A stretch of 64,000 bases of DNA from Methanobacteriota archaeon (GCA_020696385.1 JAEHCQ010000001.1:288001-352000); one strand, 5' to 3'; counted from the stretch's first letter, positions 12,877-30,113 are shown. Notes: generated by a model not told the origin, from the letters alone. A program made the numbers and translations.

Positions 12877-15105
12877 TCAAAGATTGTCCACTAATGCATT
12901 GAAGGTCGCGCTCGGTCTCATGGCCTTCACTGCAAGCTCGTCATTGGGCTTGTAGTAGCCATTATAGTTAACTGGCTGTCCCTGGGCCGCCATAAGTTCT
13001 TCATTTATCTTGGCCTCATTGGCTTCCAGTTCCTGCGCCAGCTTTGCGAAGCGTGTTTTCAATTCCACATCCTTATCCTGGTTCGCTAATTCCTGCGCCC
13101 AGTACATGGTGAGATAGAAGTGGCTTCCTCTATTGTCACGCTCATTGACCTTTCTGGATGGTGACTTGTTCTCATCGAGGAACTTGCCCGTTGCACGATC
13201 GACCGTCTCCGACAGAATCTGAGCTCGTGGATTGTCGAATGCGATGGCCAGATGTTCCAAAGAAGCGGACAATGCCAGGAATTCACCAAGAGAATCCCAT
13301 CTAAGATGGCCCTCCGCCTGGAACTGCTGCACATGCTTTGGAGCTGATCCGCCGGCGCCGGTTTCAAACAATCCGCCACCGTTCATGAGCGGTACTATGG
13401 AGAGCATCTTCGCACTGGTTCCCACTTCCAGTATTGGAAATAGGTCAGTTAGGTAATCTCTCAGAACATTGCCAGTTACAGATATCGTATCCTTGCCTTC
13501 CTTCATGCGCTGGATGGAAAAGCGTGTTGCTTCAATAGGGGACATCACACGAATATCCAGGCCAGATGTGTCATGATCCTGCATGTATGTGTGAACCTTC
13601 TCAAGAAGCTGGGCATCATGCGCCCTGTCCTTGTCCAGCCAGAAAATAGCTGGCCAGCCAGTGGCTCTCGCCCTGTTCACAGCCAATTTCACCCAATCCT
13701 GTATCGGGAGGTCTTTCACCTGGCAAGCTCGCCAGATATCACCCTTCTCAACATCATGTTCAAGCAATGTATTACCGGATGCGGATACCACACGCACCTT
13801 CCCATCGCCTGGGCAAAGGAAGGTCTTGTCATGAGATCCGTATTCTTCGGCTTTCTGCGCCATCAGACCCACATTGGGAACAGTTCCCATCGTGGTTGGA
13901 TCGAAGGCTCCGTTCTTCTTACAGAATTCAATTGTTTCATGATAGACACCGGCGTAGCTGGAGTCAGGTATGATGAATTTCGTATCCTGCAATTCCCCAG
14001 CAGCATTCCACATCTTTCCAGAAGCACGAATGGCAGCTGGCATGGAAGCATCGATGATGATATCGCTCGACACGTGTAAACTTGTAATTCCTTTGTCAGA
14101 ATTCACCATGGCCAATCCCGGTCTTTTGTCATAGGTTGCCTTTATGTCAGCCTCGATCTCCGCCCTTTTGTCATCGGGCAGAGTTTTTATCTTTGCATAA
14201 AGGTCTCCGAGTCCATTGTTTGGACCGATGCCCAGCTCTGCAAATGTGGCCGCATGTTTATCGAAAACATCCTTGAAGAACACATATACCCCATGACCGA
14301 AGATGATCGGGTCCGAGACCTTCATCATCGTGGCCTTCAGGTGCATAGAGAATAGAATACCCTTATTCTTCGCATCCTCCACCTGCTCCTCCAGGAAAGC
14401 TCTCAGAGCGCGCTGGCTCATTACAGTTCCATCGATGATCTCACCGATCAGGAGAGGAGTCTTTTCTTTCAAGACCTTGATGTTTCCATCCTGGCCTACG
14501 AATTCAATTCTGCAATCTCCGATATTGGCCTCATCAATAGTCACCGAGGTCTCGTTCGAGCAAAGGTCACCGCTGGCCATTGTAACCACATGGGACTTGG
14601 AGTCAGCGGACCACTCACCCATTGGGTGCGGGTTCTTCTTCGCATAGTTCTTGACCGAGTTTGGAGCACGTCTATCCGAGTTTCCTTCTCTCAGAACTGG
14701 ATTTACCGCGCTGCCTTTGATAGTGTCGAACCTGGCCCTAATCTCCTTCTCCGCATCTGTTTGTGGATTTTCGGGGAAATCTGGCAGATCGTAGCCCAGA
14801 TCCTGTAATTCCTTCAAGGCCGCTTTTAGCTGCGGGATGGAAGCACTGATACACGGTAGTTTGATTACATTGGCCTCTGGCTTCTTTACAAGAGAACCCA
14901 GTTCTGCCAGGTCATCGGATATCCTCTGTTCCTCCGTGAGTTTCTCAGGGAATTTCGCTATGATCCTTCCAGCAAGGGATATGTCTCTTGTTTCGACGGA
15001 CACACCCGCTGCTTCTGTAAATGCCTTCACCACTGGTAGAAAGGAATAAGTGGCGAGGCCAGGAGCCTCGTCCACCATAGTGTAGATTATCTTTCCTTTG
15101 GTCAT
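12877..15105 (-). CDS. icd: Monomeric NADP-dependent isocitrate dehydrogenase
   Basis: 742 aa; [46 protein letters not shown] and [15 protein letters not shown] motifs of the monomeric IDH family. Confidence 0.96.
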
Positions 15106-15111
15106 GATCCA

Positions 15112-27505: not shown

Positions 27506-28942
27506 ATGTCCGAAGAAATGTTCAAGGAATTGCAGGAGCTTTTAGGAGAGAACTTCACCACCAGCACGGCCGCCAGATATGCTTATTCATCAGATGCCAG
27601 CATATACAGGGCGATGCCCGATGCGGTGGCAAGGCCGATGAATACCGAAGAGGTATCCAAAATTGTGAAACTGGCCAATAAGTACAAGGTGCCGATCACA
27701 CCGCGAGGAGCGGGAACTGGCCTCTGTGGAGCAGCAGTTCCTATCAAGGGTGGCATCACCCTGGACATGCAAGCCATGAACAAAATTAAAAGTATAACAC
27801 CCGAGAATTTATTCTGTATAGTCGAGCCAGGTGTCATTTACGATCACCTGAACAATGAGCTGAAAAGCGCGGGATACCAGTTCCCTGGTTCTCCAGGCAG
27901 TGCGGAAGCCGCGAATATCGGTGGCATGGTGTCACTGAATGCCAGCGGTATGAGAGCCATCAAATACGGCGCGACAAGGGATTATGTTCTCGGCCTGGAA
28001 GTGGTTCTTCCAACCGGAGAGATCATGAGGGTCGGCACGCACACTCTGAAGAACAGCTCCGGCTACCAATTGGAGAAATTATTCGTGGGCTCCGAGGGCA
28101 CACTGGGTATCATTACCGAAGTTACTTTGAAGATCGTCGCTTTACCAAAGGCAGTGGCCGCGGCTTTGGTCAGCTTTGACAAGGTGGAGAAAGCGGGCCA
28201 GGCAATTTCCAATATAATCGCACATCCTATTATTCCAAGTTCCATGGAGATCATGGATAATACCTGTATCACCGCGGCAAACCGCGGGATCGATGCCGGA
28301 TTGCCAGATGTCCCAGCAATTCTGATAATCGAGGTTGATGGTCCCATCGAGGAAGTCGGCCGTGAGATCCGACAGGTCGAAGAGGTCTGTAAAGCAAGTG
28401 GAGCCACCCATATCATCGTATCCGATGATAAAGCCGTTTATGGCCTCTGGCACGAGGCCAGAAAGTCCGTCCTGCCAGCTCTGGGAGGATTCAGCCCGGA
28501 TCTGAAGATCGTATCACTTGCGGATGACATGGGTGTTCCGATCTCCAGGGTGGCTGATGCGGTCATAGGCTTCAAGGAAATATCCGATAGGAACAAGGTC
28601 ATAATTGCCACTTACGGTCATGCCAGTGATGGTAACCTTCACACTAAATTCCTCATCGATCCGAGCAAGGAAGATGACTGGAAAAGGGCGGAAAAGGCCG
28701 TGGAGGAGATCTATGATCTAGTTCTTTCCCTCGATGGGACAGTGACTGGCGAGCACGGTGTGGGAATGGCCAAAGCCCCTTACATGAAGAAGGAAAGGGC
28801 CACCGCGATCAAGACCATGAAGGCCATCAAGGACGCTCTCGATCCGAATAATATCATGAACCCAGGCAAGATGTTCGAATGGGAGAGCGATCACATAATT
28901 ATGAATCTCAGATACCCCGCGGAGGTGAACTTCGATGAGTGA
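27506..28942 (+). CDS. FAD-linked D-2-hydroxy-acid dehydrogenase, GlcD/Dld family
   Basis: PRGAGTGL, GSEGTLGIITE, GHASDGNLH, GEHGVG and DPNNIMNPGK motifs. Confidence 0.9.
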   Translation: MSEEMFKELQELLGENFTTSTAARYAYSSDASIYRAMPDAVARPMNTEEVSKIVKLANKYKVPITPRGAGTGLCGAAVPIKGGITLDMQAMNKIKSITPENLFCIVEPGVIYDHLNNELKSAGYQFPGSPGSAEAANIGGMVSLNASGMRAIKYGATRDYVLGLEVVLPTGEIMRVGTHTLKNSSGYQLEKLFVGSEGTLGIITEVTLKIVALPKAVAAALVSFDKVEKAGQAISNIIAHPIIPSSMEIMDNTCITAANRGIDAGLPDVPAILIIEVDGPIEEVGREIRQVEEVCKASGATHIIVSDDKAVYGLWHEARKSVLPALGGFSPDLKIVSLADDMGVPISRVADAVIGFKEISDRNKVIIATYGHASDGNLHTKFLIDPSKEDDWKRAEKAVEEIYDLVLSLDGTVTGEHGVGMAKAPYMKKERATAIKTMKAIKDALDPNNIMNPGKMFEWESDHIIMNLRYPAEVNFDE

Positions 28943-30113
28943 TGAAAAGAAGTATATCAAGGGCGATAAGCTGAAGGCATTGTATGACCAAACACTCCTC
29001 TGCACGTCCTGTGGATATTGTAAATCCGTATGCCCGGCCTTCAAGGGCACATTATGGGACCACAATACAGCCAGATCGAAGATGGTGCTGGCCTATGGTC
29101 TGTTGCAAGGCGACATACCAGTGGATGATTCAGTTGTTCAATCCATATTCGAATGCACCACCTGCGGAGATTGTATGCGCAGGTGTCCTTCCAATGTCAA
29201 GACAGTCGATGTGCTCATGGCTGCCAGGCAGGAACTGGCAGGCTTACATGAGGTTCCAGAGACCATGGAATTGGCTCTGGAAAATATTGAGAAGTTCGGC
29301 AATCCACAGGGAGAGCCAGCATCAGCCAGGGAGGAGTTCCTTCCAGATGAGGCAAAGGCCAAGCTGAGAACTGGCGGAGATGTACTGGTATTCCTGGGAT
29401 GCGTCGCTTCCAATACGGATATGAAGGTGACATCCGCCATTTTCAAGATACTGGAAAGGGCAGGAGTGAGCTACACCACACTTGGAGAGAAGGAGCCATG
29501 CTGTGGCTTCCTCAATTATCTGGCTGGTTACGAATCCGATGCCTTTGGAAAAAGTCTTCTGGAGCAGATCGAGACATTGAACCCGAGACCGAAAATGGTG
29601 GTCACGCCCTGTCCCGGATGCTACAGGACACTCCATCACATCTATCCCGAGAGCGGAGTGGATCTCGGCCTGGATTCCAGGCACATACTGGAATTCTTTG
29701 ACGAGCTTATCGAGAAAGGCGATCTCATTGTTACCAAGAAGCTAGAGGGGAATGTCCTTTACCACGACCCTTGTGATCTCGGTCGCCATGCGGAGATGTA
29801 TGACGAGCCCAGGAAATTGCTTTCACATTTTGCCGAAGTGAAGGAATTCAAATTCAATAGAGAACAAAGCCATTGCTGTGGAGGTGGGGGCGGTCTGCAA
29901 TCCACCAATTATGATATTTCATCATCCATGGCAAAAGCCAGACTTACCGAGGCCAATGAATTGGAGGGGGACTTCATTGTTTCCGCATGCCCGGCATGTA
30001 AATCCATGTTCTCCAATGCCGCATCTGATTTCAAAAAGGAGACTGGCAAGAAGTTCAAGGTCAGGGATCTGGTCGAGATAGTTCACAAGAACACCAAAGG
30101 CAGAGAAAGTTGA
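28935..30113 (+). CDS. Fe-S oxidoreductase with 2x[4Fe-4S] and two CCG domains (GlcF/HdrD-like)
   Basis: CTSCGYC..VCP, CTTCGDC..RCP, EPCCG, YHDPCDLGR and CCGGGGG motifs; overlaps the GlcD-like gene. Confidence 0.9.
   Translation: MSDEKKYIKGDKLKALYDQTLLCTSCGYCKSVCPAFKGTLWDHNTARSKMVLAYGLLQGDIPVDDSVVQSIFECTTCGDCMRRCPSNVKTVDVLMAARQELAGLHEVPETMELALENIEKFGNPQGEPASAREEFLPDEAKAKLRTGGDVLVFLGCVASNTDMKVTSAIFKILERAGVSYTTLGEKEPCCGFLNYLAGYESDAFGKSLLEQIETLNPRPKMVVTPCPGCYRTLHHIYPESGVDLGLDSRHILEFFDELIEKGDLIVTKKLEGNVLYHDPCDLGRHAEMYDEPRKLLSHFAEVKEFKFNREQSHCCGGGGGLQSTNYDISSSMAKARLTEANELEGDFIVSACPACKSMFSNAASDFKKETGKKFKVRDLVEIVHKNTKGRES

Follow-up and report, generated by a model that had tools for sequence, protein, structure and literature searches.

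The DNA analysed here (the window) is a 64,000-nucleotide stretch from a Methanobacteriota archaeon (GCA_020696385.1 JAEHCQ010000001.1:288001-352000), in which positions 12,877 to 30,113 carry a block of tricarboxylic acid (TCA) cycle genes built around an ATP-citrate lyase (ACL). Genes were called from a listing of open reading frames (ORFs), followed by Pfam and NCBIfam profile scans of the window proteins; all 44 non-overlapping ORFs of at least 70 amino acids were scanned in this way (16 + 28). The genes acn, aclB, aclA and icd form one tight operon on the minus strand (12877-20285), as an earlier note on this DNA had proposed, with spacings of 88 nt between acn and aclB, 1 nt between aclB and aclA and 6 nt between aclA and icd. 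The operon and the signals that frame it are as follows.

18342-20285, minus strand: acn, PRK07229-type aconitase, 647 residues (NF005558, 946 bits against a cut-off of 612)
16976-18253, minus strand: aclB, ACL beta subunit, 425 residues (ATP-grasp domain PF24948, 307 bits against a cut-off of 83; citrate-binding domain PF16114, 283 bits against 26.8)
15112-16974, minus strand: aclA, ACL alpha subunit, 620 residues (CoA_binding, PF02629; Ligase_CoA, PF00549; C-terminal Citrate_synt, PF00285, residues 413-605)
12877-15105, minus strand: icd, monomeric NADP-type isocitrate dehydrogenase, 742 residues (PF03971, 1292 bits; TIGR00178, 1297 bits against a cut-off of 950)
12857-12832, just past icd: terminator-like hairpin, the strongest in the scanned region
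20379-20409, within the acn leader (199 nt): candidate operator, a perfect inverted repeat with 13-nt arms around a 5-nt spacer

The first gene of the operon is acn, whose listed start codon is TTG, an ATG located 9 nt inside it being the more plausible start; icd is the last. A search for the core of the repeat in the acn leader, with up to two mismatches allowed, gave a single full match in the 2.28-Mb genome and two degenerate ones elsewhere. The neighbours of the operon are sucCD and a fumarase-type gene pair, again as noted earlier, and none of the 44 ORFs matches the families of citrate synthase, malate dehydrogenase (MDH), succinate dehydrogenase/fumarate reductase or 2-oxoacid:ferredoxin oxidoreductase, which the same note had found missing from the window.

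From its domain content, the block is predicted to encode a genuine ATP-citrate lyase with two subunits, of the eukaryote/Methanothrix type. The C-terminal domain of AclA is a citryl-CoA lyase domain with the citrate synthase fold, which argues for a real ACL rather than a citryl-CoA synthetase. The alignment of AclA with human ACLY spans residues 3-618, and its GHAGA histidine, which we take to be the catalytic phosphorylated residue, is aligned with the GHAGA of the human enzyme. The best solved relatives of AclA are human ACLY (829 bits), Methanosaeta ACLY-B (811 bits) and Chlorobium AclA (393 bits); those of AclB are the N-terminal part of human ACLY (504 bits), the Methanothrix protein (460 bits) and Chlorobium AclB (160 bits). 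Eukaryotic ACLY and Methanothrix (Methanosaeta) ACLY-A/B (PDB entries 6hxh, 6hxi, 6znw and others) are the nearest solved relatives and have the same domain order. The window enzyme is divided into two separate subunits as in Methanothrix, whereas the eukaryotic chain is fused, and it differs from both in its gene context, a TCA operon. The AclAB of Chlorobium limicola (PDB entry 6hxj), the textbook enzyme of the reductive TCA (rTCA) cycle, belongs to the same family and has the same two-subunit layout, but is far more distant in sequence. In the available part of a preprint (10.1101/2024.05.29.596406), eukaryotic ACLY is placed beside a Thermoplasmatota clade.

Judged from profile matches, the genome (50 contigs, 94.5% complete, so that lone absences are no proof) appears to hold each step of the ACL-type cycle except a recognisable malate dehydrogenase. 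The genes for the 2-oxoglutarate step (kor) and for fumarate reduction (frd), without which the earlier note would have given up a complete cycle, lie side by side on contig C48, and the cycle is not refuted. They belong to one co-directional cluster (C48:19002-32149, L016:3003-16150) that encodes, in this order, an HdrB/SdhE-like CCG protein, a 2Fe-2S/4Fe-4S protein, a TfrA/FrdA-like flavoprotein (548 residues, with an N-terminal extension of about 90 residues), KorA, KorB, KorC, HdrA (1068 residues) and MvhD, followed by an FrhB-like Fe-S protein and HydB/HydG-like subunits. This layout suggests that fumarate reduction is linked through an Hdr-type module to the ferredoxin for the 2-oxoglutarate step. 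One full-length protein of the genome matches PF00890 (213 bits); its partners are Fe-S and CCG proteins. The pyruvate enzymes, which the earlier note had also proposed to look for, are present as a pyruvate:ferredoxin oxidoreductase (PFOR) of 1176 residues (TIGR02176, 1820 bits against 911) and two sets of pyruvate/2-oxoisovalerate:ferredoxin oxidoreductase (POR/VOR); genome-wide, there are also an indolepyruvate:ferredoxin oxidoreductase (IOR) and PaaK. In addition, we found a two-subunit pyruvate carboxylase (PycB, NF006761, 725 bits against 402, with the PycA and BirA genes adjacent), a malic enzyme, two group-3-like [NiFe] hydrogenases with NAD(P)-binding partners and a block of four NuoL/M/N-like antiporter subunits.

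A full-length citrate synthase was not found in the genome, where the PF00285 matches are only aclA and a 268-residue citryl-CoA lyase; the idea of a reversed ACL, which a citrate synthase would have undercut, is thus left intact. CdhC was not found by a profile search of the genome, and hence no Wood-Ljungdahl route. A tblastn search with the Iso_dh genes of relatives detected no dimeric isocitrate dehydrogenase (IDH) in the genome, and the sulfite reductase domain (PF01077, NIR_SIR) is absent from all four genomes of the genus, fumarate reductase being the sole other acceptor searched for. The citryl-CoA lyase gene lies on contig C46 (129357-133291, L017:7358-11292) between two citF genes, each encoding 513 residues, and all three products score over their NCBIfam cut-offs; no CitD or CitE gene was seen beside them. 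By family assignment, CitF and the lyase (Ccl) would be a carrier-free, ATP-free pair, cleaving or forming citrate alongside ACL.

To place these genes among relatives, we used a sample of 61 genomes that includes 21 of the host order, for which the counts are descriptive, kin not being independent. AclB (PF16114) is present in 27 of the 61 genomes and in 18 of the 21 from the order. A canonical full-length citrate synthase (E < 1e-98) occurs in 11 of the 61, all of which lack ACL, and is absent from the 27 ACL genomes; a divergent citrate synthase-like protein of about 360 residues is found as an extra in one family. As for malate dehydrogenase, PF00056 (Ldh_1), PF02615 (Ldh_2) and PF06039 (Mqo) have no match in the host genome (G000), PF00056 has none in the five genomes of the host family, and tblastn with the mdh genes of two relatives from the same order detected nothing in G000. 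PF02615 is matched in only one of the 61 relatives. A strong match to an Ldh-type MDH is seen in 18 of the 61 genomes, but in 8 of the 27 with ACL, which leaves 19 ACL genomes without this enzyme; a LarA homolog with at least 40% identity is present in 11 of these 19, including all six that are at least 90% complete.

In the window, the gene for the LarA homolog belongs to a second unit, in which larA, fumA and fumB are followed, after 124 nt, by sucC and sucD. A 1-nt overlap joins larA to fumA, fumB adjoins fumA with no gap, and the sucC and sucD genes share 8 nt. A glcD-type gene and an Fe-S/CCG gene, which also overlap by 8 nt, diverge from larA.

25674-26933, minus strand: LarA homolog, predicted nickel-pincer malate racemase, 419 residues, overlapping the fumA start by 1 nt
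24814-25674, minus strand: fumA, class I Fe-S fumarase alpha subunit (NF004885, 331 bits against 276)
24217-24813, minus strand: fumB, class I Fe-S fumarase beta subunit (TIGR00723, 189 bits against 145; NF004708, 219 bits, below its cut-off of 269)
22899-24092 and 22028-22906, minus strand: sucC and sucD, ADP-forming succinyl-CoA synthetase (NF001913, 567 bits against 370; NF004230, 441 bits against 336)
22011-21995, past sucD: terminator-like hairpin, from the hairpin scan
27506-28942, plus strand: glcD-type FAD dehydrogenase (PF01565 and PF02913)
28935-30113, plus strand: HdrD/GlpC-like Fe-S/CCG protein (Fer4 and two CCG domains)

The earlier note had named the enzymes of this range correctly, leaving the LarA homolog, GlcD and the Fe-S/CCG protein unnamed within it. 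The fumAB pair is the sole fumarase candidate found in the genome (one PF05681 match), and the C-terminal domain of FumC was not detected there by a profile search. The GlcD/Fe-S pair is predicted to be a D-2-hydroxyacid:acceptor oxidoreductase.

The best NCBIfam match of the LarA homolog is the malate racemase LarAH6 (NF052593), with 375 bits, under the cut-off of 500; against NF052595 it scores 287 bits, under the cut-off of 462. Its best solved relative is Mar2 (PDB entry 6d6z, 223 bits), and lactate racemases score 167-190 bits. Both catalytic histidines, the cofactor-binding lysine and the nickel-binding histidine align with those of Mar2 and LarA. At the two substrate positions the homolog has Gln-Lys and His-Lys, the latter aligned with the same pair in Mar2; according to the accessible text of PMC11770544, malate racemases are marked by a His or Gln followed by a Lys at the positions of LarA W358/T359. 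Compared with Mar2/LarAH6 of Thermoanaerobacterium thermosaccharolyticum (6d6z; PMC7583248, PMC11770544), the catalytic and cofactor residues and the substrate marks are conserved, while the loop past the second catalytic histidine reads Tyr-Phe in the window homolog and Tyr-Lys in Mar2. The genome also contains LarC1 and LarE genes from the nickel-pincer cofactor set, no search having been made for LarB.

The gene context of larA extends beyond this genome. Of the 13 genomes of the order with both genes, 11 have larA immediately next to fumA. Moreover, the best matches of the window Fe-S/CCG protein outside the genus are located directly downstream of larA, in eight genomes from two other families. 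There, a stand-alone larA homolog and an Fe-S/CCG gene, 30-50 nt apart, form a module of their own (L055:8647-11040 in G058, and seven further genomes; families f7 and f9); in G058, the one case examined, no flavoprotein gene is near this module. As far as the consulted part of PMC7583248 goes, its context table gives an Fe-S oxidoreductase, an FAD dehydrogenase and malic enzyme as neighbours of malate racemase-like groups; the f7/f9 module fits the LarAH group 4 context of Table S1 in the same source, and a fumarase operon, such as that of the window, is not among the contexts listed in the portion at hand.

We may wonder at this stage whether the oxaloacetate/malate step could operate with no MDH at all. 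In such a bypass, fumarase would yield L-malate, the nickel-pincer racemase would convert it to D-malate, and GlcD with the Fe-S/CCG protein would oxidize the latter to oxaloacetate. The adjacency of larA and fumA, the occurrence of LarA in all six near-complete MDH-less ACL genomes and the larA-Fe-S/CCG pairs seen elsewhere speak for this route, which we nevertheless regard as a long shot. Oxaloacetate and malate could be interconverted either in this way, by the racemase and the FAD/Fe-S dehydrogenase, or by malic enzyme together with pyruvate carboxylase, a bypass that is equally available. The best solved relatives of GlcD are LctD (282 bits), mouse D-lactate dehydrogenase (278 bits) and glycolate oxidase (275 bits), compared with 168 bits for D-2-hydroxyglutarate dehydrogenase, so that reading GlcD as a D-malate enzyme from its likeness to the latter finds no support in the sequence. 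Nor do we accept the racemase as a simple replacement for MDH: four relatives (G006, G010, G018 and G020) have its closest orthologs (55-57% identity) together with an ordinary mdh, the two genes being located on one contig, 3 to 3.5 kb apart, in G006 and G010. In three of these four, mdh is divergent from a glcD/Fe-S pair. If true, the bypass would amount to an exergonic, Mqo-like oxidation of malate, would make a citrate synthase-free cycle with an ATP-yielding reversed ACL thermodynamically workable, and would provide the first physiological role for malate racemases. We offer the MDH gap and the racemase link as leads and do not count them among the results.

Two observations in relatives concern the surroundings of these genes. 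In G020 (L058, C28:1-9000), mdh is divergent from an operon comprising glcD, an Fe-S/CCG gene, a small Fe-S gene, an HdrB-like gene and a gene for an HdrA of 1012 residues; a 2-hydroxyacid dehydrogenase is here tied to an Hdr module. Upstream of larA, three relatives encode a protein of 433-478 residues (L036:14671-16008, L037:7475-8911 and L038:14410-15711). The two that were scanned (L036 and L037) consist of three to four AMP-binding_C domains with nothing else recognisable, and counterparts in G000 are weak partial matches only (C11, near 500.5 kb, and C22).

ACL alone leaves the direction of the cycle unfixed, as was rightly stated earlier. With a probability of roughly one half, we read the gene set, on the strength of its composition, as serving mainly reductive or bidirectional, citrate-cleaving use in a mixotrophic fermenter. 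The cycle would be ferredoxin-dependent, reversible and mainly citrate-cleaving, leading from 2-oxoglutarate through isocitrate and citrate to acetyl-CoA and oxaloacetate. Its role would be to assimilate carbon and to balance redox in a peptide fermenter that is mixotrophic and cycles hydrogen, the fumarate reductase being presumably wired to the HdrB-like, HdrA and MvhD proteins. Citrate cleavage is favoured because no other CO2-fixation route was found, because hydrogenases, PFOR and pyruvate carboxylase are present, because the fumarate reductase sits with HdrA/MvhD beside kor and because there is no sulfite reductase for complete oxidation. The earlier interpretation, which offered an archaeal rTCA cluster or an ATP-conserving oxidative or glutamate-to-acetyl-CoA route, stands in part: the gene calls and the searches for kor/frd and citrate synthase bear it out, whereas the MDH gap, LarA and the lack of sulfite reductase were not foreseen.

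Several points weigh against a mainly citrate-cleaving cycle. The step missing from the ring appears to be malate dehydrogenase. The reductive cycle normally uses a thermodynamically easy NAD(P)H-dependent MDH, the loss of which is odd for rTCA. KorA clears the cut-off of the general 2-oxoacid:acceptor model (548 bits against 411) and falls below the 2-oxoglutarate-specific one (368 against 579), and KorB is over no model cut-off, the substrate specificity of kor being deduced from its position. The fumarate reductase is a family-level call, with 309 bits against a TfrA cut-off of 718, and L-aspartate oxidase models score as well. Finally, the genome contains the usual set for amino-acid fermentation (IOR, VOR/POR and PaaK), and because of this set the cycle may never close.

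An open arrangement of this kind is the best of the alternatives, although we consider it rather unlikely: a branched pathway, with two arms in a fermenting peptide degrader, and with neither net CO2 fixation nor complete oxidation of acetyl-CoA. In the first arm, 2-oxoglutarate derived from glutamate would be converted through succinyl-CoA to succinate and ATP, or reductively carboxylated to citrate and cleaved to acetyl-CoA and oxaloacetate; in the second, aspartate or oxaloacetate carbon would reach succinate by way of malate and fumarate, the electron sink being the Hdr-linked fumarate reductase. The absent MDH breaks the ring, as this pathway would have it. Yet all of the other ring enzymes are present, and pyruvate carboxylase and malic enzyme could close the gap. 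Amino-acid fermentation typically involves IOR, POR/VOR (two sets here), PFOR and PaaK, NAD(P)-linked group-3-like hydrogenases can also dispose of electrons, the clustering of fumarate reductase with HdrA/MvhD fits a soluble redox sink, and the second, ATP-free citrate-cleaving pair (CitF and Ccl) suggests citrate catabolism. On the other hand, the inclusion of acn and icd in the ACL operon and the mutual exclusion of ACL and citrate synthase over the 61 genomes indicate that the segment from citrate to 2-oxoglutarate is dedicated to ACL, which fits either use. An S8 protease within the window also agrees with peptide degradation. Flanking proteolytic genes had earlier been taken to favour heterotrophy in a 'protease-rich' archaeon; this description is weakly borne out, as a peptidase domain is present in a single one of the 44 ORFs (S8 subtilase, 94-3972) and the remaining giant ORFs of the window have CARDB, Big_5 or carboxypeptidase-regulatory-like domains only, while the genome-wide IOR, VOR/POR and PaaK do fit amino-acid fermentation.

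An oxidative cycle, in which a reversed ACL would make citrate and ATP from acetyl-CoA and oxaloacetate and acetyl units would end as CO2, is improbable. Such a cycle was reportedly described in Desulfobacter postgatei by Moller and colleagues in 1987. Both systems have ACL in place of citrate synthase and a ferredoxin-dependent 2-oxoglutarate step, a predicted one in the present case, but Desulfobacter respires sulfate, and the lack of a sulfite reductase domain in the four genomes of the genus, where no terminal acceptor other than fumarate reductase was searched for, weakens the Desulfobacter-like option of the earlier note; complete oxidation would moreover need syntrophic removal of H2. 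With no citrate synthase, ACL or Ccl is the sole way of making citrate. Malate would be oxidized by a route of higher potential than NAD, first the racemase and then the D-2-hydroxyacid FAD/Fe-S dehydrogenase, which would make up for the pull that is lost with citrate synthase: an NAD-type MDH is absent, the malate racemase-like gene lies within the fumarase operon with the GlcD/Fe-S pair adjoining, and quinone-linked malate oxidation, unlike that by the NAD enzyme, is exergonic according to the available part of PMC9768450. Against this stand both the likeness of GlcD to D-lactate dehydrogenases and glycolate oxidase rather than to the D-malate-active D-2-hydroxyglutarate dehydrogenase, and the four relatives that pair the closest racemase orthologs with an ordinary mdh.

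The ACL operon exists in two forms among the related loci, of which the search gave 14 close ones. The form of the window, acn-aclB-aclA-icd with a monomeric IDH, is found in five other loci from metagenome-assembled genomes (MAGs) labelled Thermoplasmat(ot)a; the rTCA cycle of Chlorobium likewise uses a monomeric IDH. The second form, acn-icd-aclB-aclA with a dimeric IDH (Iso_dh), is found in two other families of the order, in a Nanoarchaeota-labelled locus and in a Deltaproteobacteria-labelled locus, the AclA of which is 79% identical. We built an AclA tree with FastTree from 50 of the 131 collected rows (midpoint root, SH-like support, no outgroup and no bootstrap), without named Chlorobi, Nitrospira, Aquificae or eukaryote sequences. 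The window falls within a clade of 13 Thermoplasmat(ot)a rows (support 97), which is sister (support 97) to a clade of 14 rows with all four Deltaproteobacteria-labelled ones; AclA of two other families of the order branches outside. This topology points to a probable exchange of the ACL operon between domains. At a finer scale, the icd of a relative from the same genus (L041:10870-13098) is only 78% identical to that of the window, whereas its neighbours are 91.6-98.7% identical (aclA 98.7%, eamA 94.7% and arcS 91.6%). Because of this difference, icd looks as if it had been swapped within the operon by allelic replacement, and the closest icd sequences (87%) belong to other MAG lineages.

Between the two units, and elsewhere in the genus and order, lie features that may concern regulation.

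20485-21834, minus strand: RAM-domain protein of 449 residues (PF01037, 49 bits, residues 128-172)
21961-21973 (minus strand) and 27421-27433: the 13-mer TAATTTACGCAAT, upstream of the RAM-domain gene and of the small ORF/larA unit, respectively
G000:C48:17172-18272 (L016:1173-2273); L036:6692-7846 and 16329-17414; L037:6242-7327: TrmB/MarR-like regulators of about 365 residues

The 449-residue protein has two similar halves, as seen by eye from its translation, and no helix-turn-helix (HTH) match; G006 (52% identity) and L041 retain its gene at the same place, between acn and sucCD. It is probably a metabolite sensor. We had considered it as a hidden MDH, which was rejected on account of its sole match, an Lrp/AsnC ligand-binding domain, and of its sensor-like look with two halves. 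An exact search of the whole 2.28-Mb genome found TAATTTACGCAAT exactly twice, both copies being within this block, which makes the pair a candidate shared operator. The double winged-helix (TrmB/MarR-like) protein of about 365 residues adjoins TCA genes (acn, mdh or the frd/kor cluster) in G000, G006 and G010 and is a candidate TCA regulator; its TrmB/MarR-type HTH domains led us to reject the copies beside acn and mdh in relatives as a hidden enzyme. In the spacer between fumB and sucC (24093-24216), GAGTT-type repeats are followed by inverted copies, giving a long imperfect hairpin. A repeat of about 60 nt with an inverted ATTTGCG/CGCAAAT core is present in four copies elsewhere in the genome (G000:C11:77871, 224498 and 577199; C47:89697). 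Outside the TCA block, the window encodes a 768-residue archaeal protein (31986-34292, minus strand) that combines a bacterial DnaA-type ATPase domain (207 bits) with a C-terminal DUF835.

An ACL-based rTCA core is already known for the phylum. In the accessible parts of the respective sources, ACL-type rTCA potential is described in two Thermoplasmatota MAGs (PMC9802188) and in one operational taxonomic unit assigned to Thermoprofundales (PMC11287216), and Thermoplasmatota are among the rTCA carriers listed in PMC12400630; the excerpted text of Zhou et al. (2019; PMC6461988), on what may not be the order of the host, states that neither aclAB nor frdAB was detected in any Thermoprofundales MAG. 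The gene sets of PMC9802188 and PMC11287216, so far as the available sections show them, come from the same phylum-level group and contain both ACL subunits, both carboxylating steps, fumarate reductase and hydrogenases, the rTCA potential being read from genomes alone, as here. These sections differ from our case in several respects: PMC9802188 has a membrane quinol:fumarate reductase where we find a flavoprotein with HdrB-like, HdrA and MvhD proteins beside korABC; our own searches were aimed at MDH, citrate synthase and Wood-Ljungdahl genes and detected none of them; and the operon with a monomeric IDH and the racemase-fumarase unit are not described in the parts consulted. We found no description of a racemase-fumarase operon or of a lack of MDH in these archaea in the limited literature searched. 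The most novel lead is the racemase-fumarase operon of the order as a possible MDH bypass.

Uncultured sediment Thermoplasmata are treated as protein degraders, and figures for dark carbon fixation depend on whether they also fix CO2 and on the pathway used. The ACL-type set is nearly complete in this genome, is order-wide in the sample (18 of 21 genomes) and excludes citrate synthase, which makes the question of direction experimentally clean. It also has a recurrent hole, as a malate dehydrogenase could be recognised in only a minority of the relatives that carry ACL. One candidate to fill this hole is a fumarase-coupled malate racemase, which could explain the purpose of these widespread nickel enzymes.

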